64,000 bases of DNA. Origin: Minisyncoccota bacterium. GTDB lineage: Bacteria > Patescibacteriota > Minisyncoccia > Phycocordibacterales > DATDWN01. The notes beneath the pieces are model-generated. The model saw nothing but the letters and a program-made list of their open reading frames with translations. It made no database searches and was not told where the DNA came from. Within the stretch, counting starts at the first letter, position 1; each line of letters opens with the position of its first letter. The position numbers were made by a program, and so were the translations under genes. This document shows, piece after piece, positions 6,950-34,036 of this stretch. The stretch covers positions 65,813 to 129,812 of the forward strand of contig JBAZZC010000001.1 in the NCBI GenBank assembly GCA_041658985.1. Reading direction: 5' to 3'.

Positions 6950-6978
6950 TTGACAAAGAGTGAGTAACTTGTTACAAT
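6950..6978 (+). promoter_or_regulatory. consensus sigma70-type promoter (TTGACA-17-TACAAT) upstream of GC-rich island B
   Basis: TTGACA 6950-6955, 17-nt spacer, TACAAT 6973-6978. Confidence 0.5.
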
Positions 6979-6996
6979 ACACACAGACCAGGTATA

Positions 6997-7709: not shown

Positions 7710-7780
7710 TCGGGGTGCCGAGAATCGAACTCGGGCCGCATGATCCCAAATCATGAATACTACCGCTATACTACACCCCG
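7710..7780 (-). tRNA. tRNA-Pro (anticodon TGG)
   Basis: rc reads CGGGGTGTAGTATAGCGGTAGTATTCATGATTTGGGATCATGCGGCCCGAGTTCGATTCTCGGCACCCCGA; anticodon loop TTTGGGA. Confidence 0.8.
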
Positions 7781-7802
7781 ACGAATTTTTTAAAACAACT
7801 TC

Positions 7803-7839
7803 CCCAAATCATGAATACTACCGCTATACTACACCCCGA
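7803..7839 (-). repeat. 37-bp direct duplicate of the 5' half of tRNA-Pro; further tRNA fragments at 7538-7551 (3' end) and 7633-7647 (T-arm)
   Basis: cccaaatcatgaatactaccgctatactacaccccga identical to 7745-7781; gtcggggtgccgag repeated at 7538-7551; aactcgggccgcat repeated at 7633-7646. Confidence 0.8.
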
Positions 7840-7897
7840 AATTTTATAAATAAGACATCCAGCAGTTTAACACAAAAAACAAAAATGACAAAAATTT

Positions 7898-8338
7898 TTA
7901 TAAGACAACATCATCTAGGATAGAAACTCGCCATGGTTTTTTGTTTTCATCCATGTAAACGATGGCAACATCAAACTGCCAATCAATATCATCCGAAACA
8001 TTTTTGTCTAAAAGATAAGATTGAATTGCCCTACCAAGTCTTTTTAACTTCCACGGATGCATATTATCCTCTGGCCGATAATCATCTGTTACACGTGTAA
8101 CATTCTGGTCCGCCTCATCGGCGGACCCGCCGAGGAGGCGGGAAACACTTTTCACCTCCACAAAATGTATCTTATTCCCCTTTTTAGCCACAATATCAAG
8201 TTCTCCCCACTTTCTTAAGTAATTTCTGTCAATAATTGAGTAACCATTTTCCTTCAGGTATGTACTTACTGCATCCTCTCCAATTTTTCCAATTATCTGT
8301 TTTTCAGTTGGTGGTTTCTGTTCTTTTTTACCAAACAT
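7898..8338 (-). CDS. yraN: YraN/UPF0102 family endonuclease-like protein carrying an in-frame palindromic insertion
   Basis: GEDAVSTYLKENGYSIIDRNYLRKWGELDIVAKKGNKIHFVEVKS matches YraN family; segment RLLGGSADEADQ is encoded by two GC hairpins. Confidence 0.7.
   Translation of the reverse strand: MFGKKEQKPPTEKQIIGKIGEDAVSTYLKENGYSIIDRNYLRKWGELDIVAKKGNKIHFVEVKSVSRLLGGSADEADQNVTRVTDDYRPEDNMHPWKLKRLGRAIQSYLLDKNVSDDIDWQFDVAIVYMDENKKPWRVSILDDVVL
8108..8142. repeat. two adjacent short GC palindromes (family 1: CCGCC-GAnGA-GGCGG) inserted in-frame in yraN
   Basis: gtccgcc-tcatc-ggcggac then cccgcc-gagga-ggcggg; related copies at 28425-28444, 46534-46550, 1748-1764, 733-756. Confidence 0.75.
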
Positions 8339-8709
8339 CCCATTAGAGTTAATGATAATGTGTTAATTAGTAAATTAGTGAGAATATTACTATAAAAAAC
8401 CGTCTTTCAATAAATAAACTAGAACTCTAACGGGACAGGTCTCTAAATTATAATATAAAAGACCAAATGTTTCATGATTAACATATTCCACCATTTCACG
8501 TGAAACATCAGTCAGTTTTTCTCAAAAACAGACACTTTGAGGACATGTCTTATTAAAAATGTGTATAGTTCAGGCCATAATTCTAAAGCGACAAATAAAG
8601 GCCATGTGTTTTTATATCAGTCATGGACCTGTCTTTAATACACATGTCCCCAGACTTATCCACAATTTGCTGATAAAACAAAAAGAGCAGAAGCTCTTTT
8701 TTGTCTTTG

Positions 8710-8780
8710 TGCGGGTACCGGGAATCGAACCCGAATCTCGTCCTTGGCAAGGACGTGTTCTACCACTAAACCATACCCGC
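8710..8780 (-). tRNA. tRNA-Gly (anticodon GCC)
   Basis: rc GCGGGTATGGTTTAGTGGTAGAACACGTCCTTGCCAAGGACGAGATTCGGGTTCGATTCCCGGTACCCGCA; anticodon loop TTGCCAA. Confidence 0.85.
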
Positions 8781-8839
8781 ATTGTTTATTTTCCTATTAT
8801 ACACAATAAATATTCTGACTCAAAATACTATTCAGATTT

Positions 8840-8914
8840 TGGTGCACCCGGAGGGACTTGAACCCCCAAAAACAGCTTCGAAGGCTGGCATGATATCCAT
8901 TTCATCACGGGTGC
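8840..8914 (-). tRNA. tRNA-Arg (anticodon TCG), CCA encoded
   Basis: rc GCACCCGTGATGAAATGGATATCATGCCAGCCTTCGAAGCTGTTTTTGGGGGTTCAAGTCCCTCCGGGTGCACCA; cloverleaf with anticodon loop CTTCGAA. Confidence 0.7.
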
Positions 8915-8989
8915 TTCGTGTGTTCATAAGTATATATTTTATTGCAATATGTTGCAATAAAATTCGAATTTAGTTAAAATATTCGAAGT

Positions 8990-9442
8990 ATGGAAAAATT
9001 AATATGTAGTAAATGTAAGCTCTTAAAATCGGTAGGAGATTTTAATTATAAATTTAAATCAAAGGGAATCTACCAGCGCCAATGCAAGATTTGTACAAGA
9101 AATAACGTTAAAAATCACTATATTAATAATAAAAAATACTATCTTGATAAATCACGAAAGAGAAATTTGAAGCTAAGAACAGAGATAAATGAGTATTTAT
9201 TAAACTATTTTAAGAATCACAATTGTATAGACTGTGGTGAATCGGACCCAGTAGTGTTAGAATTTGATCACAGAGATCGAGAACAAAAAGACATGTCTGT
9301 TTCCAGTTTTATGAAGGCAATGAGATTAGATAGGGTAAAAAACGAAATTGAGAAATGTGATGTACGTTGTGCCAATTGCCACAGAAAGAAAACGGCAAAA
9401 CAATTTAATTGGTTTAAATTAATTAATACAAAAAATGAATAA
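8990..9442 (+). CDS. HNH endonuclease-like zinc-finger protein
   Basis: N-terminal CxxC...CxxC, C-terminal CDVRCANCHRKK (HNH-like His-Asn-His context). Confidence 0.5.
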   Translation: MEKLICSKCKLLKSVGDFNYKFKSKGIYQRQCKICTRNNVKNHYINNKKYYLDKSRKRNLKLRTEINEYLLNYFKNHNCIDCGESDPVVLEFDHRDREQKDMSVSSFMKAMRLDRVKNEIEKCDVRCANCHRKKTAKQFNWFKLINTKNE

Positions 9443-11048
9443 TTTCTCAATCCCAAAAGAAGTTACACATGTAACACAAACGCTAGAAAAAGCTGGTTTT
9501 GAGGCTTTTCTTGTGGGTGGGTGTGTTAGAGATTTAATAAGACAGCAATTGGAAATTGGTCAGATGGATGCAATTCAAGGCGGAAATAGAAATAGACGAG
9601 GAGGCGTACATGGGTACGGTGACGAGAATATTTCTATTTCCAACGCAGAAGTGCGCCATATGCCCAATTTTCAACCAAAAGATTGGGATGTAGCGACTAA
9701 TGCCAAGCCAGATGAAATTATAGCCTTATTTAGCAAGACTTTTTATGAAAACGAATTTGGTACAGTTGGGGTTGTAAACGAGCAAACAGACAATGAGACA
9801 CTAAAAGTGATTGAGGTAACTCCATATCGCATAGAATCAAAATATTCTGACGGAAGACACCCGGATAGTGTTGTTTTTAGCCAAAAAATTGATGACGACC
9901 TAAAAAGACGTGACTTTACAATCAATTCTCTGGCCTATTCTGTTTCTGCCTCATCAGCAGACGGGTCACAGGGAACAATTGTTGATTTATACGATGGCCA
10001 GAAAGATATACAAAACAAGGTCTTACGCACAGTGGGTGAGCCAGTAGACCGTTTCACAGAGGATGGTCTACGTATTTTGAGAGCAATAAGACTAAGTACA
10101 GAACTTGGATTTGAAATAGACCCAGATACGGAAAAGGCTATATTTGAGAATTCAAACCTCTTGGAAAACATATCCATGGAACGCATTAGGGATGAATTTA
10201 CAAGGATAATTATGTCAGAGAAACCAATGGACGGCCTACTTGCTATGAAAAAGTTGGGAATTATGAAGTATGTAGTTCCAGAACTTGAAGAAACCTATGG
10301 GGTTGAACAAAACCAAGCCCACGCCTACGACGTCTGGGAACATCTACTTCGTTCTGTACAACATTCAGCCGATAAAAATTTTCCTCTGGAAATTCGTTTG
10401 GCGGCTCTATTACACGATATTTCTAAGCCAGAGAATCGTCGTAGAAGCAAGGACAAAGACAAGTGGACTTTCTATGGCCACGAAGTTGTCGGGGCAAAAA
10501 CAGCAAAAAAAATCCTAACAAATCTAAAATATTCAACAAAAATAATTGAAAAAACTGTAATTCTCGTCAGGTGGCACATGTTCTTCTCCGACACAGAGCA
10601 AATTTCGCTCTCTGCGGTCCGTAGAATGATTGTAAATGTTGGAAGCTCTTCCATATGGGATTTGATGAATGTGCGCATCTGCGACCGTATAGGCACTGGT
10701 AGGCCTAAGGAAGACCCATATCGTCTGCGTAAATACCACGCAATGATAGAAGAAGCCCTTCGAGACCCAATTTCTGTTGGAATGTTAAAAATTGATGGTA
10801 AAGGATTAATGGATGTTACACATGTAACACCAGGGCCAAAGATTGGTTTTACTTTACATGCACTTCTTGAAGAGGTTTTAGAAGACCCAAAGAAAAATAC
10901 AGCTGAATATCTAGAAAAAAGGGCCAGTGAGCTTATTTTACTTCCTGAAAATGAATTAAGGGCACTCGGAGAACAAGGAAAGATGTCAAAGGAAGAAGCA
11001 GATGAGGAGGAAATCAAAAAGATAAGAGGAAAACACTACGTAAAATAG
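9435..11048 (+). CDS. cca: CCA-adding tRNA nucleotidyltransferase with HD domain; contains ~40-aa in-frame insertion
   Basis: GFEAFLVGGCVRDL...DWDVATNAKPDEI (pol-beta NTase head), HD motif HLLRSVQH...LLHDISKP; insertion between VRDLIR and PKDWD. Confidence 0.88.
   Translation: MNNFSIPKEVTHVTQTLEKAGFEAFLVGGCVRDLIRQQLEIGQMDAIQGGNRNRRGGVHGYGDENISISNAEVRHMPNFQPKDWDVATNAKPDEIIALFSKTFYENEFGTVGVVNEQTDNETLKVIEVTPYRIESKYSDGRHPDSVVFSQKIDDDLKRRDFTINSLAYSVSASSADGSQGTIVDLYDGQKDIQNKVLRTVGEPVDRFTEDGLRILRAIRLSTELGFEIDPDTEKAIFENSNLLENISMERIRDEFTRIIMSEKPMDGLLAMKKLGIMKYVVPELEETYGVEQNQAHAYDVWEHLLRSVQHSADKNFPLEIRLAALLHDISKPENRRRSKDKDKWTFYGHEVVGAKTAKKILTNLKYSTKIIEKTVILVRWHMFFSDTEQISLSAVRRMIVNVGSSSIWDLMNVRICDRIGTGRPKEDPYRLRKYHAMIEEALRDPISVGMLKIDGKGLMDVTHVTPGPKIGFTLHALLEEVLEDPKKNTAEYLEKRASELILLPENELRALGEQGKMSKEEADEEEIKKIRGKHYVK
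9545..9676. repeat. ~130-bp palindromic element inserted in-frame in cca
   Basis: terminal inverted repeats gcaattggaaattgg / cccaattttcaacc and inner 13-14 bp inverted repeat ggaaatagaaatag / tatttctatttcc; encodes QQLEIGQMDAIQGGNRNRRGGVHGYGDENISISNAEVRHMPNFQ absent from canonical CCA enzymes. Confidence 0.65.
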
Positions 11049-12599: not shown

Positions 12600-13388
12600 A
12601 TGAAAAATAATATAAATGTGGACCAAGAAAACCTTCAAGAATCGTTAATTAAATCTGGCCTGTCTGAAAATGAAAGTAAGGTATTTTTGGTATTATTAGA
12701 ACTTGGCCGTGGAACGGTAACACAAATCATGAGAAAAGCTGGGCTAAACAGAACAACAGGATATGATGTTTTAGATAATTTGGTCAGAAAAGATCTCGCT
12801 AGTATTTCTGGTAAGGAACCAAAGGAGGAATATCTGGCCGAATCTCCAGATAAACTTGTTTTATTGATTGAAAAAGAAATAAATGAAAAAAATACACGAC
12901 TTCAAAATATTAAAAAGTTGCTACCAGAAATGAAATCTATTCATAATATAGCTGGAAGACCGAAAGTAAGATTCTACGAGGGGATAGATGGTTTGAAAGA
13001 TGTTTATGAAGACACCTTAACTTCCCACGAAGAGATAAGGGCATATGCAACTGTTGATGATATGCACATGACTATGCCTTCATACTTTTCTACATATTAC
13101 AAAAGAAGAGTAGAAAAAAATATTTCCATCAGAGCAATTATGCCGTCTACCCCCACAGTAAAAGCACGAGCAAGTAGAGACTTAGAGGAAAAAAGACAAT
13201 CTAAACTCATTCCAGTTGATAAATATTATTTTTCTCCAGAAATAAACATTTACGACAACAAAGTAATGATTGCCTCGTGGCGCGAAAAACTCGGGATTAT
13301 TATTGAAAGTGCAGAAATCGCAGATGCAATGAAAAAAACTTATGAGCTAGCGTGGATTGGTGCTGAAGAGGAAAGTAAAAAATTATAA
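12600..13388 (+). CDS. TrmB-family winged-helix transcriptional regulator (paralogue 1 of 3)
   Basis: SENESKVFLVLLELGRGTVTQIMRKAGLNRTTGYDVLDNLVRKDLAS matches TrmB N-terminal wHTH; similar length/architecture to 18383 and 29994 genes. Confidence 0.65.
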   Translation: MKNNINVDQENLQESLIKSGLSENESKVFLVLLELGRGTVTQIMRKAGLNRTTGYDVLDNLVRKDLASISGKEPKEEYLAESPDKLVLLIEKEINEKNTRLQNIKKLLPEMKSIHNIAGRPKVRFYEGIDGLKDVYEDTLTSHEEIRAYATVDDMHMTMPSYFSTYYKRRVEKNISIRAIMPSTPTVKARASRDLEEKRQSKLIPVDKYYFSPEINIYDNKVMIASWREKLGIIIESAEIADAMKKTYELAWIGAEEESKKL

Positions 13389-13423: not shown

Positions 13424-16400
13424 TTACTTAATGTCCAGACCGTTATCTTTGATAATCTGTTGAATCTCTGGATCTTGAAGAATGTCTCTATGAATTTTAA
13501 ACGTATTAAGTATTTTCTCAACAGCAGGAATCTCTTTGCGAGAAAGCCGTATGATTATTCCCGCTCTGCCTGCACTCTTAACCTCTGGACTCTCTATAAC
13601 CTCTTCTGAAACAGAGAATTCGTCCACCATTCTCTTTGCCTCTCTAACATGACCCTGGGAAAGTGCACCTACTATTCCCTTTTTGGTGGCCTCTTTAATT
13701 TCTGGGGTTTGTAAAAATTCTTTTGGAACTTTAAACATCTCGAGTATTTTCACTGCATTTTTTATGTGTCCAGCGGATATATATGCAACAACTCGACGAG
13801 TTACATATTTTTTAATTTCCGGGTCTTGTATAGCTTCCTCAGAGACTCCAAGTCGGGTGACAACATCTTCGATTCTTTCATCATTCCCTTCTGACGGATA
13901 CTGACTAATCGCTTTTTGAACTGCTTTGTGAACTGATTCTTGTGGAATTTTAAACCTTTCAACCATTGTACCTACAAAAACCAAATCATACCATTTAAAT
14001 GAAAGTTTGGTATCCATCACGGTTACTGCTTCTCTTTGAATTTCTGTGTCTTGAAAGATTTCGTCTGAAATACCCAGCTTATCAACTGCTACAGATATCC
14101 AACCCATATCAACATGAAGATTGCTGATGATAAGCTCTTTAATTATTTTATCAGTATCTTCTTTCGAAACACCAAATGATTTTACTACGTCCTGACCAGT
14201 AGGAAATTCTTTTTGAGCAAAAAACAACTTAATGAGTTCTCCAGCAGCCCCTTGAACCTTGGGACCGCGCATAAATTCTTCTGAAACTTTGAACATATCG
14301 GCTAGTTTTCTAGCACTAACCGGGCTTTTTCTAGTGAGAGACAAACGCTGAATAATCTCTTCCTGAACCGCTTCCTGCACTTCTGGACTCTGTAACGTTT
14401 CTTCAGAAATCTTAATTACACTGACTAATAATTTAATGCTCTCATCAAAATCGTGTACAGAAGATAAGCGAGAATCAACATTTAGCTGCCTAATAATCCA
14501 ACTCTTGACTGATTCCTGTATCTCGGGACTCTGCAACACTTCTTGCGAGACCTTAAACTGTTTTACTGTTTTTATAGCTTGATCAATATTACCACTAGAT
14601 AAATCCTTAATTATCTTCCTCTTGGCAACTTCTTGAATTTCCGGACTACTTAAAATACTGTCTGGCAACTGAAAATTATCAATTAATATTTGGAGTTTGA
14701 TGTTATTTCCCGAGGAATCGCATGAAATAATGGCATTTTTGACTATTTCATAAACAACACTCTCTTGAACTTTAAATACTCTTATTACCTCCTTTGCCCT
14801 ATCGAAAGATACCTCTGATAAACTCTGGCTAATGACCTTTCTAGCATGTTCCTGAATTTGATTATTTTGAAGTATCACATCTGAAACTTCCATATCACGA
14901 AGCAATGCTACGGTTTTGACACGAAGCTCAGAAGAAGAACAGCCCAAGATATATTTTTTAATTATGGCGTCCTTGGCCTCCTGAGGAACCCTAAATGCCT
15001 TTATTAGTTCTTTGGCAACAAGGAATTTATCAAAAAGTAGATTTTTTGTGATTTTATCCCTAACAGCTTCTTGAATCTTTGGACTATGTAACACTTCATC
15101 TGAAACATCTAGATTACTAAAAATACTTTCGAAGGTACTAAAACTAGTCTCTGAAGAAAGTTTATCTAAAATAAGTGTATTAATGGCTTCTTGAATTTTC
15201 GGATTTTGAGCAACATTCATTCCAAATAGTTTTATCACCTGCCCAGCTTCTACCACACGACCATTTCGAATGAGGTTAAAAGCACAATAAGTAGTAGCTT
15301 CTTGGATTTCTGGGCTTTGTAAAATATCATTTGAAACTTTAAACTTTTCAAATATAAAACTCACATTGTCTACAAGCCACCGGTCAGACAACATCTTTAA
15401 AACAAATGGTTTGACAGCTTCTTGAACTACTGGGTCTTGCAAGATTTCATCTGAAATATTATACAAAACAATTATATTTTTAATTTCAAAACAATTACTG
15501 TATGATAACATATCTATCAATCCTAATTTAACGATTTTTTGAAATTCAGAAGTCTGAAAGAACTCTATTGGAACAGTAAAACGCTTTTGTATTTCAATAG
15601 CCCTAGAATCACGACTTTTTGTAAAACTGTGTATAATCGCTCGCTTAGCAACTTCTTGAACTATCTCTTCTGAAAGATTTAAATTTTTTATTTTTCTAAT
15701 AGCACTATCTGTTTCACCCTCAGCCAATAAATCGACAATTTCATCAATTCTTTTTTTGTTTTCTATAAAAAACTCCTCAAGTTCCCTCCTTTTCTTTATT
15801 TTTTCGGCAATGTTTGGAAATGATTCTTCTAGTTTAAATAGCTTTACAAGAAAAATCTCTCTCTCACCCTCTTTTTCATTTGATAATTGATCTTTAATGT
15901 GCCTTTCAATCATGCTTCTGCAGTAATTCTTAAAACCAGCTCCTGATTCCTTGGACAAGCTAAGTTTGTGCATGAGAGAAGACACTAAACCCTCTTTTTC
16001 ACCCTCACAAAGCTTAGAAACAATTGAAAAAAATTCCTCATATTGACCTGACATTTTTTTACCAGATTCTAAAAATGTTCTGAGTGAAAAAAAGACCGTC
16101 TGACGAGCATCATCATCTCCCAGATCTTTCAAATATCTCGTATCACCCTCACTTGCAAAATATGATGCAAGAGCTATTAATTCTGCTTCAGATAGGTTTT
16201 CTTTTTTTGTTTTATTTATACTAAGTGCTTTAGAAATTTTTGAAAAAGCAGGATTTTTTTGTCTACTTTTTAATTTTATAAATGGAAATAATTTATCCAA
16301 AAATACGTCCAACCCTCCTAAATAATCACAAGCAATTACAATTCTTTCACTATCCTGATTAGTAATTGATATATCTAATATATTATTACTTGTAAGTAGA

Positions 16401-17524
16401 GAAGAGATTGTTTCAAGTTCAGTCTTATTATTAGACAACACAGCGTTTTCTATATTTCTTGCCAAGATTTTACCAAAGTCTACATCATTTAAATATCCTT
16501 TTTTATGCAAATCTATCGCAGATTTAAAATGATGTACAGCTTCACCAGAAGATTTTTTTACATCTTCAAAGTATGAGAGAATTTTACTAATTGCACTTTT
16601 TAATCTTATTTGAAGTCTTACCCGAAAAGATTCTCCTTGAGAATTACCACCAAACTTATCGTATGTTTGAATAATTTTTCCAACCTCTTCTATTTCTTTA
16701 CAGACAGATTCAGGATCCCAGTCATTACCTCCTAATAAAACAGACTCCCTAGCAAATACTGTCATTATTTTTTTGAGATTAGATAAATCTTTTTCTGTTT
16801 CTTCTCTTTCTTTTTCTAATCCTGCCTCTTGACCACTTCTTATTTCTTCAGTTTTTTTCTCTTCTATCCACACATCTTCTAATAAAGGAGATAACCTCAC
16901 CAATACCAATTTTCGCCCAGATATTTGGTTTGTTATCTCATATAATTCAGACGCATGAACAACCGACTCAGACGCACCTTGGGGAATATCCAATCCACTC
17001 AATTGAAGTGAGGTGATTTCTTCTGGAGAAATTTGTCCATCCTGAAGAATTTTTATTAATTCCTCATTTGAATGAATAAGATGTTCTAACCTTTCTTCTA
17101 ATACCTTGCGAGAAATTTGGACTATTTTTTTTGCTTCTTTTGGATCACTAAGTTTTTTAGTAATGTTGTCTATTTCTTTTTTTATCTCTTGTTGAACACT
17201 TTGCCAAATAGAGACATCTTTAGAGATATTTTCCTCAATTTCTTTTTTCTTTCCTTCTAACTCCGCAACTTCTCTTGTAATTGTTTCATAAAGAGCCTTG
17301 GCCTTTTCTACTGCAGGAGCAGTGGCTTCAGTGATTTTATTCGCCTCGGCAAAAAGACCACGAAGCTCGTCTGCTTGTCTACCAATTTGAGTAGCAAGAT
17401 AATTAATATTCTCTATATCAGTTGCTGGTTTTGATTCCGTGTCTGGATCTGGCACAAGGCTTAAAGGTGTGTTTGTGGGTAATGTTGGTTGTTCACTATT
17501 TGGATCGGTTTTCATCTTTATCAT
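13424..17524 (-). CDS. giant (1366 aa) repeat protein: N-terminal coiled coil plus >=13 tandem ~38-aa repeats ending LQ(S/D)PEIQEA
   Basis: recurring ...FKVS.E.LQSPEIQEAV... units through C-terminal ~900 aa; start 16 nt after xth stop, so likely co-transcribed. Confidence 0.75.
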   Translation of the reverse strand: MIKMKTDPNSEQPTLPTNTPLSLVPDPDTESKPATDIENINYLATQIGRQADELRGLFAEANKITEATAPAVEKAKALYETITREVAELEGKKKEIEENISKDVSIWQSVQQEIKKEIDNITKKLSDPKEAKKIVQISRKVLEERLEHLIHSNEELIKILQDGQISPEEITSLQLSGLDIPQGASESVVHASELYEITNQISGRKLVLVRLSPLLEDVWIEEKKTEEIRSGQEAGLEKEREETEKDLSNLKKIMTVFARESVLLGGNDWDPESVCKEIEEVGKIIQTYDKFGGNSQGESFRVRLQIRLKSAISKILSYFEDVKKSSGEAVHHFKSAIDLHKKGYLNDVDFGKILARNIENAVLSNNKTELETISSLLTSNNILDISITNQDSERIVIACDYLGGLDVFLDKLFPFIKLKSRQKNPAFSKISKALSINKTKKENLSEAELIALASYFASEGDTRYLKDLGDDDARQTVFFSLRTFLESGKKMSGQYEEFFSIVSKLCEGEKEGLVSSLMHKLSLSKESGAGFKNYCRSMIERHIKDQLSNEKEGEREIFLVKLFKLEESFPNIAEKIKKRRELEEFFIENKKRIDEIVDLLAEGETDSAIRKIKNLNLSEEIVQEVAKRAIIHSFTKSRDSRAIEIQKRFTVPIEFFQTSEFQKIVKLGLIDMLSYSNCFEIKNIIVLYNISDEILQDPVVQEAVKPFVLKMLSDRWLVDNVSFIFEKFKVSNDILQSPEIQEATTYCAFNLIRNGRVVEAGQVIKLFGMNVAQNPKIQEAINTLILDKLSSETSFSTFESIFSNLDVSDEVLHSPKIQEAVRDKITKNLLFDKFLVAKELIKAFRVPQEAKDAIIKKYILGCSSSELRVKTVALLRDMEVSDVILQNNQIQEHARKVISQSLSEVSFDRAKEVIRVFKVQESVVYEIVKNAIISCDSSGNNIKLQILIDNFQLPDSILSSPEIQEVAKRKIIKDLSSGNIDQAIKTVKQFKVSQEVLQSPEIQESVKSWIIRQLNVDSRLSSVHDFDESIKLLVSVIKISEETLQSPEVQEAVQEEIIQRLSLTRKSPVSARKLADMFKVSEEFMRGPKVQGAAGELIKLFFAQKEFPTGQDVVKSFGVSKEDTDKIIKELIISNLHVDMGWISVAVDKLGISDEIFQDTEIQREAVTVMDTKLSFKWYDLVFVGTMVERFKIPQESVHKAVQKAISQYPSEGNDERIEDVVTRLGVSEEAIQDPEIKKYVTRRVVAYISAGHIKNAVKILEMFKVPKEFLQTPEIKEATKKGIVGALSQGHVREAKRMVDEFSVSEEVIESPEVKSAGRAGIIIRLSRKEIPAVEKILNTFKIHRDILQDPEIQQIIKDNGLDIK

Positions 17525-18382: not shown

Positions 18383-19153
18383 ATGATAAATTTTACTAAC
18401 AATCAAATAGAGCCTTTACTTGAACTTGGCCTAACAAAAATTCAAAGCTTAATATATCTGACCCTACTCAATAATGGGATCATGTCCATACTAGAAATAT
18501 CTAAGGTGGTCAGAATAAATCGTCAGCAGATATATCAAAATTCAGAAATCCTACTAAGTCTTGGTTTTATCGAAATGGCCAGGAAAAACAAAAGGAAGTA
18601 TATTGCCTGTAATCCAAACAAATTATTAAGAATAGGAAGAGAAAAAATAACCAACGCAGAAAGTATTTTCGAAAACATAAAAAGTTCACTGCCATTATAT
18701 GAATCAATGGTACCAGAAGAAAAGTGGGGAGTTACAATTAAATATTATGATGGACTAAATAAGGTAAAAGAAGCTTATGAAGAAGAGCTAGATAACTGTA
18801 AAGAAGTTGAAGTATTGTCTCTGGTAGGTTCGGTTGAAGACATTTATAAATTTTTTCCTGAATCATACTGGAAAAAATGGAATAAAAAATTTAAAGATCA
18901 AAAATCATCAAGCCGGATGCTCGTACATAAATCAGAGAGTGCAAAAGAAAGTTCTTTTTTTGATAAAGAATACAACAGAGAAACACGATATCTAGAAGTT
19001 TTTCCTCTTAAAATAAACATTGATATATTTAACGATAAACTCTTGTTAGTCTCTTTCTATGACAAAACAGCGATTTGGATTGAAAGTAGGGTTATATCAG
19101 ATTCATACAGAATAATGTTTGAGACACTTTGGTCAAACAGCAAAAATTTCTAG
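18383..19153 (+). CDS. TrmB-family transcriptional regulator (paralogue 2)
   Basis: N-terminal wHTH LGLTKIQSLIYLTLLNNGIMSILEISKVVRINRQQIYQNSEILLSLGFIE. Confidence 0.55.
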   Translation: MINFTNNQIEPLLELGLTKIQSLIYLTLLNNGIMSILEISKVVRINRQQIYQNSEILLSLGFIEMARKNKRKYIACNPNKLLRIGREKITNAESIFENIKSSLPLYESMVPEEKWGVTIKYYDGLNKVKEAYEEELDNCKEVEVLSLVGSVEDIYKFFPESYWKKWNKKFKDQKSSSRMLVHKSESAKESSFFDKEYNRETRYLEVFPLKINIDIFNDKLLLVSFYDKTAIWIESRVISDSYRIMFETLWSNSKNF

Positions 19154-23096: not shown

Positions 23097-23633
23097 ATGA
23101 GTGTAATTAAACACAAAAATCAGCGGGTTGGTATTTTTATTGATACACAAAACTTATACCACTGCGCTAAAAACATTTATGGTGCGAAAGTAAACTTTGA
23201 CCAGGTGGTCAAAGACGGTTTAGCAGGAAGGTCTCTTACTAGGGCTGTGGCCTATGTCATCACCACAGAGGCAGGAGATGAGAAAAATTTTTTTGAGGCC
23301 CTGGGGAAAATGGGTATTGAAACAAAAACAAAAAACCTCCAAATATTTTCAGGTGGGGCAAAGAAAGGGGATTGGGATGTTGGACTGGCAGTTGATGTAA
23401 TCAAACTTGCCCCAAAACTTGATGCTATTATTCTTGTAACCGGTGATGGAGACTTTATACCGTTGGTTGAATATCTTCAAAACGTAGGTTGTCAGGTTGA
23501 GGTTATGTCATTTGGCAAAGCCACATCTGCAAAACTCATAGAAGCCAGCGACGACTTCATTGATTTAGATGAAAATCCTCGCAAATATTTAATTGGTTTT
23601 GGTATAAATAGACGTAGTCGCAGAACCACATAA
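23097..23633 (+). CDS. NYN/LabA-like domain protein
   Basis: RVGIFIDTQNLYH...ILVTGDGDF pattern typical of NYN (LabA/YacP-like) nuclease fold. Confidence 0.6.
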   Translation: MSVIKHKNQRVGIFIDTQNLYHCAKNIYGAKVNFDQVVKDGLAGRSLTRAVAYVITTEAGDEKNFFEALGKMGIETKTKNLQIFSGGAKKGDWDVGLAVDVIKLAPKLDAIILVTGDGDFIPLVEYLQNVGCQVEVMSFGKATSAKLIEASDDFIDLDENPRKYLIGFGINRRSRRTT

Positions 23634-24935: not shown

Positions 24936-27047
24936 ATGACCAACAAAATATACACGACTGATTTCGGTGGCAGAGAATTAAAAGTTGAATTTAGTGACCT
25001 GGTAGACCAAGCGCATGGTTCGTGTCTTGTTCAATATGGAGATACTGTTGTTTTAGCAACTGCAGTCATGTCTAAAAAAGCCAAAGATGGAACTGATTTT
25101 TTTCCTTTGACTGTTGATTTTGAAGAAAAATTTTACGCTACCGGAAAAATTTTAGGCTCACGTTTTCAAAAAAGAGAGGGACGACCAACGGACGACGCTA
25201 TTTTATCTGGAAGAATAGTAGATAGAACAATAAGACCACTCTTTGATAATTGGATTCGTAATGAAATTCAAGTTGTCGTAACGGTACTTTCTATCGGTGA
25301 GGATGACCCTGATATTTTGGCTGTACTAGCCGCTTCTGTGGCCTTAGGCACTTCTCACATTCCGTGGAATGGGCCTGTTGGGGCTATAAGAATAGGCAAA
25401 AATGGTGAATTTATTGTAAACCCAACATACACGCAGAGAAATACAGAGAGCTATCAGATGGACCTTTTGGTTTGTATAAAAGATGACAAGGTCAATATGA
25501 TTGAAATTGGAAGTTCCGAAGTTCCAGAGGAAGAAATTTTGAAAGCCATGGACTTAGCAAAAACAGAATTAGCTAAATTGCAAAAATTCCAGGAAAAAAT
25601 ATTTGCTGAACTCGGAAAAGAAAAAGTAAAAATACCAAAACCAGAAGTTTCAAAAGAGACGTTTGCCCTGTTTAAAGAAAAAGTACAACCAGTTTTTATG
25701 GAAAGAGTTTTCTCTGGCAATCCAGGTAAGGAAGACCTCTCTTACCTAGCAACACTCTGGGCTGAGGAAGCTAAAGTAATAGAAAATGAGAACGAATACG
25801 GTTTAGCCATGGATTATTTGCAAGAAAAAATTGACTTAGCTATTCATGAAGAAATAATAAAAAACAAAAAGAGACCAGATAACAGAAAGATGGATGAGCT
25901 CCGACCACTTCTGGCAAAAGTTGGAGGTATTTCAAAAATATTACATGGCACAGGAATTTTTTATAGAGGAGGAACACACGTCTTGTCTGTTTTGACACTT
26001 GGCGCTCCGGGAGACGCACAGCTTATAGACAACATGGAGCCACAGGAAAGCCACAAAAGATTTATGCTTCACTACAACTTCCCTCCATATTCCGTAGGTG
26101 AGGTGGGAAGAATGGGTGGAACCAACCGCCGAATGATTGGCCATGGTGCTTTAGCAGAAAAAGCCCTTTTGCCTGTTCTACCAAACAAAGAAACTTTTCC
26201 TTACACAATTCGCCTGGTGGCAGAATCAATGGCCTCAAACGGCTCTACATCAATGGCTTCTGTCTGTGCTGGATGTTTGGCTTTGATGGATGGTGGCGTG
26301 CCTATCGCTCGTCCTGTTGCTGGAATCGCTTCTGGACTTATGATGTTAGACGAAAAAAACTATGTTGTCTTAACCGACATCCAAGGACCAGAAGACCACC
26401 ATGGAGACATGGATTTCAAGGTGGCTGGGACAGAAATTGGTGTTACAGCTGTCCAAATGGATGTTAAGGTTGCTGGAATTCCAATTCATATTCTCAAAGA
26501 CGCTTTTGAGAAAGCAAAATCAGCTAGATTACAAATCTTGAAAGTCATGACAGACACAATCGCAACTCCTCGAGAGAAAATTTCAGAATACGCGCCACAC
26601 ATTGTTTCAATAAAAGTAAAACAAGACCAGATAGGACTTGTTATCGGAACGGGGGGTAAAACAATTAAAGAAATAAAAGAAAAAACCGGAGTTGACGCAA
26701 TTGATATAGATGATGATGGAACTGTATTTATTACAGGCAAGGGAGATACCTGCGAACAAGCCAAAAAAATTATTGAAGAAATGACGCACGAGTTTCTAGT
26801 GGGAGACAGAGCTCGCGCCGAAGTTGTAAAAATCGCCGAGTTCGGCGCATTTGTTCGTTTGGCTGGAAGTAACACGGAGGGTTTAGTTCACATTTCAGAA
26901 ATCGTTCCACGAAGACTTCAGTCGGCTAGTGAAGTTATGAAAGTTGGTGATATTGTTCCAGTTGTCATAAAAGAAATTGACGAACGTGGACGGCTGAAAC
27001 TTTCAATTAAAGATATTGCCCCTCAGTGGTTTGATGAAAAGAAATAA
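24936..27047 (+). CDS. pnp: polyribonucleotide nucleotidyltransferase (PNPase)
   Basis: two RNase PH domains (FFPLTVDFEEKFYATGKI..., GGTNRRMIGHGALAEKAL), KH (IGLVIGTGGKTIKEIKE) and S1 domains. Confidence 0.95.
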   Translation: MTNKIYTTDFGGRELKVEFSDLVDQAHGSCLVQYGDTVVLATAVMSKKAKDGTDFFPLTVDFEEKFYATGKILGSRFQKREGRPTDDAILSGRIVDRTIRPLFDNWIRNEIQVVVTVLSIGEDDPDILAVLAASVALGTSHIPWNGPVGAIRIGKNGEFIVNPTYTQRNTESYQMDLLVCIKDDKVNMIEIGSSEVPEEEILKAMDLAKTELAKLQKFQEKIFAELGKEKVKIPKPEVSKETFALFKEKVQPVFMERVFSGNPGKEDLSYLATLWAEEAKVIENENEYGLAMDYLQEKIDLAIHEEIIKNKKRPDNRKMDELRPLLAKVGGISKILHGTGIFYRGGTHVLSVLTLGAPGDAQLIDNMEPQESHKRFMLHYNFPPYSVGEVGRMGGTNRRMIGHGALAEKALLPVLPNKETFPYTIRLVAESMASNGSTSMASVCAGCLALMDGGVPIARPVAGIASGLMMLDEKNYVVLTDIQGPEDHHGDMDFKVAGTEIGVTAVQMDVKVAGIPIHILKDAFEKAKSARLQILKVMTDTIATPREKISEYAPHIVSIKVKQDQIGLVIGTGGKTIKEIKEKTGVDAIDIDDDGTVFITGKGDTCEQAKKIIEEMTHEFLVGDRARAEVVKIAEFGAFVRLAGSNTEGLVHISEIVPRRLQSASEVMKVGDIVPVVIKEIDERGRLKLSIKDIAPQWFDEKK

Positions 27048-29993: not shown

Positions 29994-30749
29994 ATGATAG
30001 AAAAATATCTTGAAGATGCCGGGTTGAGTGACAAAGAGGTGAAGATTTATCTTCAATTAATCCAGATGGAGAACGCTTCTGTTGTTGATTTGGCAAATAA
30101 AACAAAAATCAAAAGACCGACTGTCTACACCATTCTAGATTCGTTAGCTAAAAAAGGTCTAGTGAGTGAAATAGATGAAAATAAAAAAGCCAAGTATGTG
30201 GCCGAACCACCAGAGAGACTAAAATTATTTATAGAAAGAAAAGAAACTTTCTTGGGTGAATTAAAAAATCGTTTTGTAAATGATATTATTCCTCAAATAA
30301 AAAGTTTTCAAAAGGAAACGGGAGAGAAACCAACGGTAAAATTCTTTTCTGGTAAAGAAGGAATCCTTAGTACCAATGAAGATGTTTACGACGGAAACCC
30401 TGATGGTTCTCCAATTTATATAATATATTCCAAAGACCTTCTTGATGAGGTTTTTAAATCTACAGAAACAGACAAATACAAAAATACAAGAACCAGTGCG
30501 GGAATTAAAGCAAAAACCCTCTATAATTGGTCAAAAGGTGAAAAAAAATCGGATGAATTAGCAGAAAGAATACGGGTTGATGAAAAAAAATATCCTTTCT
30601 TTGCTGATATAAGTATATATAAAGATAAGGTCAGAATTAGCGTATTAGGTAAAGAGCTATCAGGAATATATATAAAGAGTAAAGACTTTGCCGAAACATT
30701 TAAAAGCTTATTCAATCTAGCTTTTGATAATCTGAAAAACAAACAATAA
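29994..30749 (+). CDS. TrmB-family transcriptional regulator (paralogue 3)
   Basis: AGLSDKEVKIYLQLIQMENASVVDLANKTKIKRPTVYTILDSLAKKGLVSE wHTH. Confidence 0.6.
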   Translation: MIEKYLEDAGLSDKEVKIYLQLIQMENASVVDLANKTKIKRPTVYTILDSLAKKGLVSEIDENKKAKYVAEPPERLKLFIERKETFLGELKNRFVNDIIPQIKSFQKETGEKPTVKFFSGKEGILSTNEDVYDGNPDGSPIYIIYSKDLLDEVFKSTETDKYKNTRTSAGIKAKTLYNWSKGEKKSDELAERIRVDEKKYPFFADISIYKDKVRISVLGKELSGIYIKSKDFAETFKSLFNLAFDNLKNKQ

Positions 30750-30758
30750 ACACAAATG

Positions 30759-30797
30759 ATGAAGGCCCGGCCGGATGTTACTCCGGCCAGGCCCTGT
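30759..30797 (+). terminator. rho-independent terminator (ggcccggccgga-tgttac-tccggccaggcc + TGTTTGT)
   Basis: 12-bp GC stem after TrmB-like gene stop. Confidence 0.6.
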
Positions 30798-31383
30798 TTG
30801 TCGGGTCTCCCACAAAGGATGACCCTCGCTGCGTGCCCAACAACCCAGTGGGTTGTGGGGCACCTTGTAGCTAGTCGCCCATTTTCCTAAAACTCCTTCC
30901 AAAAACAGTGCCGAACGACTGACTGACCAATTAACTACGCTGGACTAAAACCCACTGGCCCTACTTGGGATGCCCTATTGCACCCCAAGTTCGCCCGCCC
31001 GGCTCTAGTCCCACATATCGCCTCCCTTATTAGTTGAGGTTGACGTCTCTAGGGGTAGTATACACCCTACAATTTTTTTGTCAAATATTGATTTCAAAAC
31101 AGATAAACTCCATGTCAATTTATTTTTAATCTAGTCAGTCTCAATTATAAAGCAAAGAGTGATAAATGGCCTTATTTAAGACTATATTCGTTGTTAGTAA
31201 AAATGACTTGTCAGTTTAGCTTGACAAAAAAAGGGTATTGGTATATACTATCTCTAGAATCAAGTTAACAATAAGTCAGACTGCTTTGACAATAAATAGT
31301 TTTCACTTCCACTTTGGCTGGCCCGGATCGCACACATTACTTGCGAGGGGCCCCAAAGTGGGAGTGAAAACTCAACAAATGGG

Positions 31384-31704
31384 GTGGATATGAACAAGGT
31401 CATCGTCGGCGTCGTGCTGGTGCTGGTTCTGACGGTGTTCGTTGGTGGGTGTGAGCTCAACTCAGTGGTGGTTCGTCACTACTGCGATAAAGAGGTTTCG
31501 TACAACCTCTGGAAGAAAGATTCGCAGTACTGGCTGAACCTCCACGTCGGCTCGGTTGGCGAAAGGGCTTGTGCCGTAAATCCAGACATGCCTCGAGCCA
31601 TCAACTTGCGACAGTACGTTTCCTCGGGCGAGGAAGCGGACAAGTTGATTGAGAGGCACCGGCGTGCCTACGCCGAGAGACTTACCAGACCGAAAGTGAA
31701 CTGA
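31384..31704 (+). CDS. putative lipoprotein (106 aa) in GC-rich island G
   Basis: signal peptide with lipobox VFVGGC; G+C-rich. Confidence 0.45.
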   Translation: MDMNKVIVGVVLVLVLTVFVGGCELNSVVVRHYCDKEVSYNLWKKDSQYWLNLHVGSVGERACAVNPDMPRAINLRQYVSSGEEADKLIERHRRAYAERLTRPKVN

Positions 31705-31838
31705 CCTCCCCGGTCGTCGTCGCCCCGTGTAGACCAATCCCAAGTCTACCGAGTTAGAAACTGGGACAATAATACTTCGGGGAAGTACCGAAGCGCCTAA
31801 CAAGCGGTCACTGTTCGTCTTCTGGAGCGTCATCCCAG

Positions 31839-31900
31839 AACTGTATCGAGATGTGTATCTCGACTGATGAGTCCTTCAATAAGTTCAGGACGAAACAGTT
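31839..31900 (+). ncRNA. type III hammerhead self-cleaving ribozyme
   Basis: AACUGUA^UCGAGAU-gugu-AUCUCGA-CUGAUGA-GUCC-uucaauaaguuca-GGAC-GAAA-CAGUU: helix III 6 bp (31839-44/31895-900), helix I 7 bp hairpin, helix II 4 bp, full catalytic core, GUA cleavage triplet. Confidence 0.8.
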
Positions 31901-32630
31901 GGTTCCTTAAAAACAATTTTCCGAAACACCTGCCTCCTTCTTGGTTCACTAATATTAAGTGATTCAAGAAGGGGGTAGGTATGCTACGGGCAGATACCAG
32001 AACCTCCATAATGGTGTGATTTGATAGGTACACCTGTAAGAGGTGTAAGTAACAGATGATCCACATGGCATAGTGGGTAACGGGGTAAGGCTCTCCGTGT
32101 CATCGTGTTACCACATCAAATGGGTATAGTGCCACGCCAAAACTGGCGGGGGACACTATATCAACTGGAGTACTCCAGACTGCCCAATTAGAGCTTCGGA
32201 AGGTTGTAGCTACCAAACCTTGCCCTGAGGAACCAATGTTCCTCGGGGTTCCTTAAAAGCAAATCACGTTGTGGTTTCCTTTTAAGGGAAGAGAGGAACA
32301 CGAGGATAAACAAACACCTAAGTTGACCTCCTCTTGTATGTGAATCTCTTCCCGTCATGCCGTTGTCTAGGTCAGTGCAGAGACCAGAGGACAAGAAGGG
32401 TGAAATACTCCGCCTTTAAGTGATAAACCCTCCACTGGCCCAAAAGGTCAGAAGGCGGATGGTGAGTTAAGTGACTCATCATTGGGGATTAAAATACGGG
32501 TGGCCACCATGTTCTACAAAACAAGGAGGTCGGCCAAGCCCGCAAAAAACACCCCGAACTGCACACGTTCTTTGGAGCACAGGCTCCACGATTAAGGCTT
32601 CCAAGCTACCATCGTGGAGCCTTTTTCGTA
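31846..32630 (+). ncRNA. candidate ~785-nt structured non-coding RNA with hammerhead-processed 5' end and hairpin terminator
   Basis: no convincing ORF on either strand; G+C-rich with many local hairpins (e.g. gaggaacc-aatg-ttcctc); bounded by ribozyme cleavage site and terminator 32578-32630. Confidence 0.3.
32578..32630 (+). terminator. rho-independent terminator, copy 1 of an identical 52-bp repeat
   Basis: ggctccacgat-N18-atcgtggagcc + TTTTTCGTA; identical copy 32951-33003. Confidence 0.75.
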
Positions 32631-32736
32631 TCTAAAATGTGTCCCCAGGAGAACTTGACTTTTACCACCTGTCTGTGTTATAATACAAGTAGGAGGTGGG
32701 GCACTACTAACAAAACCCACCGAAGGGAGTTAACAA

Positions 32737-32937
32737 ATGGCAAAGAAGAAGTACCGAAAGCCCCCGAAGGGCTCGGGGGCGGAGTTCCTCGCAAGACTCG
32801 ACTGCCATGCGTCGACGAGGCGGGTGGCAGACGTCGGTCTCGGCCGGGGAGTGACCAGGCGGATTCCTCGTCGTGAAAATCTCGACGAACGAGCGGGTGA
32901 TTTCGGGGATGATGAGAAGAAAGAGAGGTACAATTGA
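32737..32937 (+). CDS. small basic protein (66 aa), hypothetical; bracketed by identical terminators
   Basis: MAKKKYRKPPKGSG...; SD gaagggag; G+C-rich. Confidence 0.4.
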   Translation: MAKKKYRKPPKGSGAEFLARLDCHASTRRVADVGLGRGVTRRIPRRENLDERAGDFGDDEKKERYN

Positions 32938-32950
32938 TGTTCCTTGGGGC

Positions 32951-33003
32951 AACAGGCTCCACGATTAAGGCTTCCAAGCTACCATCGTGGAGCCTTTTTC
33001 GTA
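32951..33003 (+). terminator. rho-independent terminator, copy 2 of 52-bp repeat
   Basis: identical to 32579-32630. Confidence 0.75.
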
Positions 33004-33010
33004 TAAAAAT

Positions 33011-34036
33011 TTAAAATGGATTTTTTGCTCCTCTAATTTCAAAGTGAAGATGTATACCCGTCGGACCCTTCACTCTACCCGTCTTACCCATTTTACCTAT
33101 AACCTGACCTTGTTCTACATAATCCCCGGCACTAACTAATATTGAATTTAGATGACCATAAACTGTCTGGGTACCATTTCCGTGTTTGATAATAATATAG
33201 TTACCATACCCACCATTCCAACCGGTTCTTGCAATCTGTACTTGGCCAGAAGCTGAAGCTAAGATATTTGTGTTAAGAGCTGCCGAAATGTCCACCGCAT
33301 ATCTGTCATGTAGTCCCTGTGTTTTAATTCCACCAATAAGTGGTCGCATGTAATAACCCTCGTAAACCGGATATAACGGAGCTGGTTTAGATATAACACT
33401 ACCACCAAAAGAAACAGGAATAACCTCACCATCGGGCACAACTATTATGTCTCCAACGGCCAATTTGGCATTTTTTGTTAAGTTGTTATATTGCAAAACC
33501 TCTTCCAAATCACCCTTATAAAGCCTGGTTATGCTTTGAAGCGTGTCCCCAGATTTTACTCTGTGTTGTATACCCGAAATAGGTAAAATAACCAGAGTTT
33601 GGCCCTCTGATATTGTATTTCCCTTTATATCGTTACCCCATCTAATAGTGTTAGATGAAACCCCAAACATTTTAGCTATGGCTGGTAGAGTATCTCCCTT
33701 GTGAACAACGTACAAACTAATCTGGTCTTCGCTTACCGTTTTTGTGTCAGCCGGCTTTTGTATCTCTGGTAAAAGAGAGGTCCCGTCAACAATAGTCGCC
33801 TCTTCTTTTGTGGTTGAAGACATTTGGCTCGGAGAGAGAGTGGCTTGAAGTAAAGCCATGTTTTGTGAATTTAGTTGTTGTACTTCCTCAGCCTGAACGT
33901 TGGTTGAAAATAAGTCAGAAAAAAAAGAAAAAACACCGGCTTCTGTGTGCAACGGCATTAAAAGTAATCCCAAAAGAGCAATGCTCAAGAGACTAGGTGT
34001 TATTATGTTCACCACATGTTTCTCCGATCCCACCAA
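33011..34036 (-). CDS. LysM-domain M23 family metallopeptidase
   Basis: two LysM repeats (YVVHKGDTLPAIAKMFGVS..., HRVKSGDTLQSITRLY), M23 motifs GYGNYIIIKHGNGTQTVYGHL and IHLHFEIR; N-terminal signal/TM. Confidence 0.88.
   Translation of the reverse strand: MVGSEKHVVNIITPSLLSIALLGLLLMPLHTEAGVFSFFSDLFSTNVQAEEVQQLNSQNMALLQATLSPSQMSSTTKEEATIVDGTSLLPEIQKPADTKTVSEDQISLYVVHKGDTLPAIAKMFGVSSNTIRWGNDIKGNTISEGQTLVILPISGIQHRVKSGDTLQSITRLYKGDLEEVLQYNNLTKNAKLAVGDIIVVPDGEVIPVSFGGSVISKPAPLYPVYEGYYMRPLIGGIKTQGLHDRYAVDISAALNTNILASASGQVQIARTGWNGGYGNYIIIKHGNGTQTVYGHLNSILVSAGDYVEQGQVIGKMGKTGRVKGPTGIHLHFEIRGAKNPF

Follow-up and report, generated by a model that had tools for sequence, protein, structure and literature searches.

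What is a hammerhead ribozyme doing in a bacterium of the candidate phyla radiation (CPR), between a lipoprotein gene and a long stretch of structured sequence? The question is raised by positions 31839-31900 of a 64-kb stretch of contig JBAZZC010000001.1, the whole of which is referred to below as the window, and in which an initial annotation, made from the letters alone, had described a canonical hammerhead of type III. The answer developed here is that this segment is a real and complete type III hammerhead self-cleaving ribozyme, its cleavage being predicted from the sequence, that it is one of at least 86 related copies, which lie in a variable, GC-rich operon beside a conserved gene for a TrmB-like regulator, and that its function is most likely co-transcriptional cleavage, as predicted, which would insulate the downstream RNA from the upstream messenger RNA (mRNA). 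Neither the ribozyme class nor the clustering of hammerheads is new. What is new is that they are found in the CPR, linked to TrmB and now and then accompanied by Ro60 genes; in the literature searched, no report tying hammerheads or other self-cleaving ribozymes to Patescibacteria or the CPR was found.

A complete type III hammerhead

On the plus strand the motif reads AACUGUA|UCGAGAU-GUGU-AUCUCGA-CUGAUGA-GUCCU-(11 nt)-AGGAC-GAAA-CAGUU (nt, nucleotides; the bar marks the predicted cut), and its core, helices and cut site are those given in the initial annotation (Table 1). The core of this copy carries no substitution; its positions C3-U4-G5-A6-N7-G8-A9 and G12-A13-A14 are invariant or nearly so across the alignment of 64 family members described below. 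The pairs closing the junction are U31844-A31895 (A15.1-U16.1) and G31871-C31891 (G10.1-C11.1), which correspond to UA in 64 of 64 and to GC in 63 of 64 aligned sequences, and position 17 is a residue other than G (A31845). When 31836-31903 is folded with RNAfold, both the minimum-free-energy and the centroid structure are exactly the three-way junction of a hammerhead, the fold energy of this segment by itself being ordinary (z = -1.1). A search for the core pattern CTGATGAG-N8-38-CGAAAC gave a single match in the window and no match in 100 dinucleotide-preserving shuffles.

The Rfam model RF00008 (Hammerhead_3) aligns with the segment from end to end at 40.6 bits (E = 6e-7, 1.7 kb searched), and a covariance model of the family scores it at 64.1 bits and detects no second copy in the window. 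A supposed second hammerhead on the minus strand, near 32473-32489, was rejected, as it has AUGAUGA instead of CUGAUGA and no match to the family model. The earlier description of a single hammerhead is therefore accurate for the 64 kb of the window, but the copy is not isolated, as it belongs to a lineage-wide set located downstream of a TrmB-like gene.

A hammerhead family linked to TrmB in Paceibacteria

The TrmB-like gene upstream of the ribozyme has 360 homologs, mostly in Paceibacteria. From GTDB species representatives, 64 loci were fetched via an alignment of 25 TrmB homologs; they sample Zambryskibacteria, Taylorbacteria, Vogelbacteria, Azambacteria, Liptonbacteria, Lloydbacteria and other lineages, and related loci and contigs are designated here by L-numbers. 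A strict motif-and-pairing finder recognised 71 type III hammerheads in these 64 loci, all on the TrmB strand. The covariance model built from 64 aligned hammerheads, the window copy included, returned 86 copies at E < 0.01 from both strands of 627 kb, every one of them on the plus strand and downstream of TrmB, with none in the 306 kb upstream of TrmB and none on the opposite strand. The 86 copies are spread over 34 species-level genomes, 24 loci having two to nine each. Of the 37 loci in which TrmB identity reaches 40% or more and the sequence extends for 3 kb or more past the gene, 31 carry one to nine hammerheads, the first lying 850-2600 nt after the TrmB stop codon and the others following at a median spacing of ~800 nt.

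Within the alignment of 64 sequences 97.6% of the cells are standard pairs, a percentage inflated by the pairing that the finder required, and 15 of the 17 pairs have changed on both sides. The covariation score is 0.712 as against 0.218 in shuffles, none of 500 of which reaches the observed value, and at most 0.104 in slid controls. Neither the variety of pair types nor the 86-to-0 bias in strand and position is affected by the finder, and because covariation and this bias are seen across the loci, the hammerhead is a genuine one that is kept by selection and belongs to a family spread through the lineage.

Some 25 hammerheads have a start codon, complete with ribosome-binding site, 27-60 nt downstream of them, and a helix of at least 12 base pairs (bp) follows 51 of 87 hammerheads compared with 78 of 400 control stretches; it is a long, sequence-variable hairpin, which in many cases runs on into further structured RNA. 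A leader motif, represented in the window by GGUUCCUUAAAAA, starts 1-4 nt 3' of 47 of the 87 hammerheads as against 1.1% of random array positions. In the window it stands at module boundaries (31901-31913, 32247-32259, 32563-32573 and 32938-32948), and in L228, L130 and L129 it adjoins the ribosome-binding site of the lipoprotein gene on the 5' side, for which reason it is probably a shared leader of 5' untranslated regions (UTRs). Two other readings of such motifs were dropped: a short peptide, MFFK, encoded by the leader motif, since the AUG is absent from many copies, and an integron-like interpretation of the GUUCUUU and GCCUAAC motifs, which do not fit GTTRRRY and are accompanied by no integrase.

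The content of the operons turns over fast between species. The gene order ComM-TrmB-island-M23-UvrD is common only to the closest relatives; in more distant genomes the linkage of the array to TrmB is all that remains. Most proteins of the arrays are small and belong to no Pfam family (76 array ORFs; ORF, open reading frame). Six of the 64 loci have, in the operon that follows TrmB, a gene for a homolog of Ro60 with TROVE and vWA domains. Hammerheads are present in three of the six, immediately in front of the Ro60 gene in L141 and L175 and shortly behind it in L182. In the window no Ro60 gene was found by tblastn, and the Y_RNA and YrlA models have no match in its positions 31400-33100 (E < 10) or in the Ro60 loci (E <= 0.05).

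The transcription unit and the downstream RNA

The host, described initially as CPR-like, is indeed a CPR bacterium, Candidatus Paceibacterota, and the GC-rich island said to contain the ribozyme is genuine: it spans 30750-33010, with 46-50% GC at 31-33 kb compared with ~32-44% nearby. The hammerhead is carried by a unit headed by a sigma-70-like promoter, both hexamers of which are identical in L005, a 62%-identical relative, and the promoter and leader region is matched in many loci. The mismatches between the lipoprotein ORF and its L005 counterpart are distributed 26/25/49 by codon phase, which marks the ORF as coding. Homologs of the lipoprotein are encoded in L005, L127, L129, L130 and L228; a word-indexed search of 5.8 billion protein clusters returned one, on L005, a 1-kb contig that ends exactly at the start of the hammerhead. 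The overlapping minus-strand ORF of 123 amino acids (31462-31833), called by some pipelines, was rejected as a real gene because it is the plus-strand ORF that has the codon-phase conservation.

The element between the lipoprotein gene and the hammerhead is more conserved than the ORF itself. It includes, at 31745-31838, a two-hairpin motif not present in Rfam, composed of GUAAU, hairpin a with a GGAAGYW loop, hairpin b (CGCC..AAGCG) and then AACUGUUGG. Sixteen copies of this motif were found in 13 loci (L143:10340-10432, L148:8678-8771, L159:6425-6518 and L171:9016-9109 among others), usually ~40 nt 5' of a hammerhead, and its hairpin a covaries (UA:8, CG:7, AU:1). The motif also occurs without a hammerhead, in L127, L157, L171 and L176. 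In L157 (~8000-8040) and L171 (~12640-12690) a different, conserved nested hairpin, CCAAGUG..AUCUCCGAGGAGAU..CACUUGG, is placed at the expected hammerhead site, between the two-hairpin motif and a GUUCUUUAAA leader. When 31705-31990 of the window is folded as a whole, the upstream CACUGUUCGUC pairs with GACGAAACAGU of the ribozyme (the 3' strand of helix III together with G12-A14), a pairing that may compete with the active fold.

On its 3' side the hammerhead is followed by ~735 nt of highly structured non-coding RNA. The downstream stretch of ~0.8 kb, reported at first as free of ORFs, has 9-17 stops in each frame, and coding potential was rejected also by comparison with L127, in which substitutions number 69/72/68 by codon position, with no periodicity and with many insertions and deletions. 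The fold of 31846-32630 has an energy of -313.6 kcal/mol, with z = -11.6 for the plus strand versus z = -6.4 for the minus strand, both against shuffles. The large RNA has no Rfam family even at E = 10. In L130 and L228, with TrmB proteins 75-79% identical, an orthologous hammerhead is followed by the same first 460 nt of this RNA, and RNAalifold for the three species gives 133 pairs, 39 of them compensatory; changes of this kind are found in the long hairpin as well as in helices I and II of the hammerhead. Module C of the RNA recurs twice in L127 and also in L129 (RNAalifold, 42 pairs, 16 compensatory), and the core at ~32206-32295 was found in four copies.

The order of these parts differs between relatives. 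In L228 and L130 the leader motif follows the hammerhead and the RNA immediately, and after it come the ribosome-binding site and the lipoprotein gene; L129 has a shorter version, the hammerhead-headed 5' leader of the gene being ~100-460 nt long in the three loci. The window and L127 show the opposite order: the lipoprotein gene comes first and the RNA after it, with no ORF 3' of the RNA. Judging from these arrangements, the modules are evidently shuffled between species. The ribozyme lies, as claimed initially, between the lipoprotein gene and a structured non-coding RNA, and the processing of the transcript suggested along with it is supported as a prediction.

The terminator-like hairpin at 32581-32630 is likely the 3' end of the hammerhead transcript. 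It is held in a 67-nt direct repeat (32570-32636 and 32943-33009, 91% identical) that brackets a separate small cassette. Only one terminator copy aligns in L127, with nothing between, so the cassette appears to be absent there and has the look of a duplication or insertion of recent date. Within the first copy of the repeat, two Logan contigs come to a break.

Table 1. Features of the hammerhead, its transcription unit and the adjoining region (window coordinates unless a locus is named)
Feature	Position	Strand	Remarks
Helix III	31839-31844 (AACUGU) with 31895-31900 (ACAGUU)	+	6 bp including U16.1-A15.1; open helix
Predicted cleavage site	A17 = 31845; cut between 31845 and 31846	+	GUA triplet
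Helix I	31846-31852 with 31857-31863	+	7 bp; loop GUGU
Core	CUGAUGA 31864-31870; GAA 31892-31894	+	All conserved nucleotides present
Helix II	GUCC(U) 31871-31875 with (A)GGAC 31887-31891	+	4 bp and 13-nt loop, or 5 bp and 11-nt loop
Sigma-70-like promoter	31221..31249	+	TTGACA-17-TATACT; 11 of 12 consensus positions
5' leader hairpin	31298..31372	+	20-nt arms; inverted repeat, 95% complementary; conserved in L005
Lipoprotein-like gene, 104 amino acids	31390..31704	+	Signal peptide and VGGC lipobox; no Pfam family
Conserved structured element before the hammerhead	31729..31838	+	~90% identical to L005, more conserved than the ORF
Parts of that element	Hairpin 31729-31749; closing stem 31761-31766/31833-31838; hairpin a 31775-31793; hairpin b 31794-31806	+	Hairpin a loop GGAAGUA
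Leader motif GGUUCCUUAAAAA	31901..31913	+	Family consensus G[AU]UC[CU]UU, then A-rich run
Long hairpin	31929..31979	+	~22 bp, three G-U pairs, A/U-rich loop; compensatory changes versus L130 and L228
Rest of the structured RNA	31980..32580	+	Multi-branch domain, core ~32206-32295, module C 32340-32580
Intrinsic-terminator-like hairpin and UUUUU	32581..32630	+	12-bp stem with inner 4-bp stem; homologous copy in L127
Separate small cassette	32637..33009	+	Promoter 32655-32684 (strong); basic ORF of 66 amino acids 32737-32937; second terminator copy
TrmB-family winged-helix regulator gene, 251 amino acids	29994..30749	+	Pfam PF01978, E = 2.4e-16
Candidate divergent structured small RNA, ~290 nt	30762..31084	-	Promoter-like site (sigma-70-like) 31084..31057; strong terminator hairpin 30795..30762
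Ro60 genes in related loci	L141:~8220-9819; L175:6022-7668; L182:6248-7708; L135:8559-10118; L139:8953-10527; L140:3662-3826

Proposed function and alternative explanations

We propose, with a probability of roughly 0.75, that the hammerhead cuts the nascent transcript after A31845 and thereby separates the lipoprotein mRNA from the structured RNA. What the sequences show is the motif, the way it is conserved and covaries, the bias in where and on which strand it lies, the signals for transcription, and a downstream RNA that is non-coding, structured and conserved; we infer cleavage in vivo, the boundaries of the transcript and the benefit. A single plus-strand transcript would probably start at the 31221-31249 promoter and end at the 32581-32630 terminator. 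The ribozyme would fold during transcription and cut itself after A31845, yielding an upstream product of ~590 nt, the lipoprotein mRNA, with a 2',3'-cyclic phosphate end just behind the conserved multi-hairpin element, and a downstream product of ~790 nt, non-coding and structured, with its 5'-OH buried in the folded ribozyme. The fates, stability and folding of the two RNAs would in this way be uncoupled, and the downstream RNA would acquire a defined, context-independent 5' end without triphosphate or monophosphate.

Established enzymology suggests that decay pathways which depend on the 5' end, and enzymes that add 3' tails, act poorly on ends of the hammerhead type. Because such ends would resist decay and tailing, and the window encodes RNase Y (1784-3322), PNPase (24936-27047) and an enzyme of the CCA/poly(A)-polymerase family (9435-11048), an uncoupling of stability and folding of the two RNAs would be expected. 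The action would resemble that of the synthetic insulator RiboJ, in which a hammerhead of the type found in the satellite RNA of tobacco ringspot virus (sTRSV) is followed by a hairpin. In Paceibacteria the family would do this job repeatedly, with one to nine hammerheads, each with its leader motif, heading successive small genes or structured RNAs.

Several observations weigh against this proposal. The score of 40.6 bits lies below the RF00008 gathering score of 48.5, and an Rfam gathering scan of the whole window lists four tRNAs only and no hammerhead. The initial annotation had taken a score below that threshold as sufficient for giving up the hammerhead; the gathering score is a curation threshold and no structural feature, and as a test it is judged too strict because just one of 31 family copies, drawn from 11 loci, exceeds it (others score 39-45 bits) despite strong covariation and a strict bias in strand and position, so that the hammerhead call stands. 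Loop II comprises 11-13 nt in the window copy, as opposed to a GAAA or AAAA tetraloop in most family members; its variant UUC...UUCA is common only to the window copy, L128 and L178, loop I being of the family-typical GUGU/UGUGUA kind, and because loop II is enlarged, the contact between loops I and II for fast cleavage is uncertain. In the fold of 31705-31990, positions 31808-31819 pair with 31890-31900 and so rival helix III for its 3' strand. Finally, the closest relative, L127, joins the pre-hammerhead element to the RNA without a hammerhead, so the ribozyme is dispensable for that RNA, and part of the window unit, with no ORF after the RNA, could be a decaying cassette.

According to this last view an ancestral unit of hammerhead, long structured leader and lipoprotein gene, the arrangement of L130 and L228, lost its ORF by rearrangement; the ribozyme may still cut, and the 0.7-kb RNA would be a functionless relic. 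Such a history would fit the direct continuation, in L228 and L130, of the same hammerhead and RNA into the lipoprotein gene, the leader-like GUUCUUUGGAG at 32563 that abuts the terminator with no ORF, the varying order of modules among the window, L127 and L130, and the rapid turnover of operon content between species. We nevertheless consider it unlikely, as all helices of the RNA are intact and its fold is extreme (z = -11.6), the differences from L127, L129, L130 and L228 are largely compensatory, the core of the hammerhead is unsubstituted, and L127 retains two copies of the ORF-less modules.

The island might also be foreign DNA, that is, a remnant of a phage or satellite or a mobile element which the hammerhead serves in place of the host. 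Its GC content of 46-50% compared with a host background of ~37% may be read in this way, although structured RNA genes in AT-rich genomes are also high in GC; most array ORFs are without a known family, yet no integrase, capsid, terminase or other phage gene was found among the 76 array ORFs or the Pfam-scanned neighbours. The same hammerhead subtype, with loop I motif GAUGUGUAUC, is present in 40 viral contigs of IMG/VR, several of which have 3-5 copies, and clustered hammerheads are typical of prophages (PMC3088659). The island, however, had no blastn match in 50,697 phage records, and a motif scan of viral contigs with a 22-mer of the 3' UTR element and with the large-RNA motif returned nothing. 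The operon keeps the same place relative to TrmB down to 41% TrmB identity, and a promoter and leader are detectable in a subset of loci, which fits long vertical residence and makes a foreign origin, in our estimation, distinctly improbable.

Considerably less probable still is a regulated switch, in which the two-hairpin element would bind a protein or ligand and thereby control whether ACUGUU (31810-31815), a look-alike of helix III, pairs with the ribozyme's 3' strand and so prevents the cut. The pairing of 31808-31819 with 31890-31900, replacing part of the active fold, is what such a switch would use, and the 16 copies of the element have conserved unpaired nucleotides and covarying stems and mostly lie directly before a hammerhead. 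On the other hand, ACUGUUGG is equally conserved in element copies with no hammerhead after them (L157, and L171 at 12584), so its conservation is independent of the ribozyme; most hammerheads of the family have no such element, no ligand or protein partner is known, and co-transcriptional folding would favour the local ribozyme fold.

Least probable for this window is a role in RNA repair or ligation, with the cleavage ends joined by an RtcB-type ligase into circular RNAs or with the structured RNAs acting as Y-RNA-like partners of Ro60. In its favour are the Ro60 genes in the operons of six of the 64 loci, three of these with hammerheads, the established enzymology of RtcB, which ligates precisely the ends that a hammerhead leaves, and the existence of units between two hammerheads in multi-copy arrays. 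Against it, the window has one hammerhead and hence no unit excisable at both ends, no Ro60 gene, no Rfam Y_RNA or YrlA match (nor have the Ro60 loci), and an RNA without sequence similarity to those beside Ro60 genes.

Comparison with known systems

With the type III hammerheads of RF00008, and in particular with the subtype of sTRSV and the sobemovirus virusoids, the window copy shares an identical core, the open helix III and the GUA triplet. Its 7-bp helix I with a UGUGUA-type loop is that of the sTRSV/virusoid subtype, as is, in most of its relatives, a 4-bp helix II of GUCC/GGAC with a GNRA-like loop; we take it to resemble the sTRSV hammerhead. The same loop I motif is found in virusoid-like IMG/VR records of 366 nt (L200) and 377 nt (L204), whose hammerheads are of the same subtype and score 61-62 bits with the family model. 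In length these records would match the virusoids that accompany velvet tobacco mottle virus and Solanum nodiflorum mottle virus. Unlike the virusoid hammerheads, that of the window is carried by a bacterial chromosome and not by a circular RNA replicon, has a loop II of 11-13 nt and scores below the Rfam gathering value. Three phage-like contigs (L220:9222-12075, L197:3015-6756 and L024:3318-6045) contain 3-5 co-oriented copies of this same hammerhead subtype and resemble the arrays of Paceibacteria, and generic GUCC/GGAC hammerheads are abundant in viral contigs. A 20-mer of the conserved 3' UTR had no exact match in public genome contigs, and in metagenome contigs one chance match inside a phage terminase gene.

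Clusters of hammerheads flanking prophage genes were described by Perreault et al. in 2011, who demonstrated their cleavage both in vitro and in E. coli and proposed the processing of long or polycistronic RNAs (PMC3088659). As in those clusters, the co-oriented hammerheads of the relatives would divide one long transcript into pieces of gene or RNA length. The Paceibacteria arrays differ in their fixed position next to TrmB across a whole CPR class, in much structured non-coding RNA among their cargo, in their association with Ro60, in reaching nine copies per locus and in the shared leader motif after the ribozyme, the window itself being single-copy. A prophage context was not found around the window copy, which has ComM, TrmB, an M23 peptidase and UvrD as neighbours, and no phage families were detected among the 76 array ORFs.

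A functional parallel would be offered by RiboJ, a synthetic insulator (Lou et al. 2012) built of the sTRSV hammerhead and a hairpin. In both, a hammerhead of the sTRSV type is followed by a short leader with a hairpin and by a ribosome-binding site, an arrangement in which cleavage would strip off variable upstream RNA and standardise the downstream 5' end. Unlike engineered RiboJ, the units described here are natural and repeated, and that of the window heads a non-coding RNA instead of a gene; insulation would be its role by analogy.

The six related loci in which a Ro60 gene stands beside structured non-coding RNAs in the same operon are reminiscent of the bacterial Ro60 (Rsr)/Y RNA loci. 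The window differs from the latter in having no Ro60 gene and no Y_RNA or YrlA match, and its ~790-nt RNA is far larger than known Y RNAs. It also differs from hammerhead-bounded circular RNAs of the retrozyme kind, as only one hammerhead is present and the unit closes with a terminator.

Genomic neighbourhood

The neighbours of the island are ordinary chromosomal genes. They encode PNPase, a MazF-like toxin, ComM and the TrmB-family regulator on one side and, past the island, an M23/LysM peptidase (minus strand), UvrD and KsgA. Directly behind the TrmB gene, on the opposite strand, the island contains a GC-rich, ORF-free segment (30762-31084) that may encode a divergent structured small RNA; its fold has z = -6.8, and it is partly conserved in L127, L129, L130, L128 and L005. 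In E-value scans of 30600-33100 neither this candidate nor the motif before the hammerhead nor the large RNA was assigned to an Rfam family, the matches to microRNAs and small nucleolar RNAs being at chance level.

Farther away, a paralog of the TrmB family (256 amino acids) is encoded at 18383-19153, and the family model detected no hammerhead near it. Other parts of the window contain four tRNA genes among protein-coding genes (4407-8914, minus strand), a minus-strand ORF of 1366 amino acids at 13424-17524 with no Pfam match at E <= 1e-5, and a gene for an NYN-domain protein at 23097-23633.

Significance

Among ribozymes the hammerhead is a textbook case, but its roles in bacteria are understood only in small part. 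The repeated, conserved, one-strand setting beside a single regulator gene allows the job of the ribozyme to be read from its context, in which it heads genes and structured RNAs within one transcript. This context, a conserved, TrmB-linked, ribozyme-punctuated and fast-shuffling operon, is more interesting than the ribozyme itself. As annotation at Rfam thresholds misses nearly all copies of the family, ribozymes are under-counted in CPR genomes. Several conserved RNA elements that are absent from current catalogues, namely the ~790-nt RNA, the two-hairpin motif and the leader motif, are added here for organisms that cannot be cultivated, and the link to Ro60 in some genomes suggests hypotheses on RNA processing and quality control in reduced genomes.

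A broader and quite tentative picture, which we would hold to be possible though doubtful as a whole, is that of the TrmB-linked operon of Paceibacteria as a shuffling array in which a portable hammerhead with its leader motif, often with a long hairpin, heads each cargo, which may be a large structured RNA or else a protein, either Ro60 or a small secreted one. As a natural platform, such an array would serve expression and insulation, and the repeated ribozymes would drive the turnover of cassettes by recombination. Its products, with 5'-OH and 2',3'-cyclic-phosphate ends, may represent a new class of CPR non-coding RNAs working with Ro60 or RNA-repair enzymes, and the ~790-nt RNA of the window would be one such functional product.

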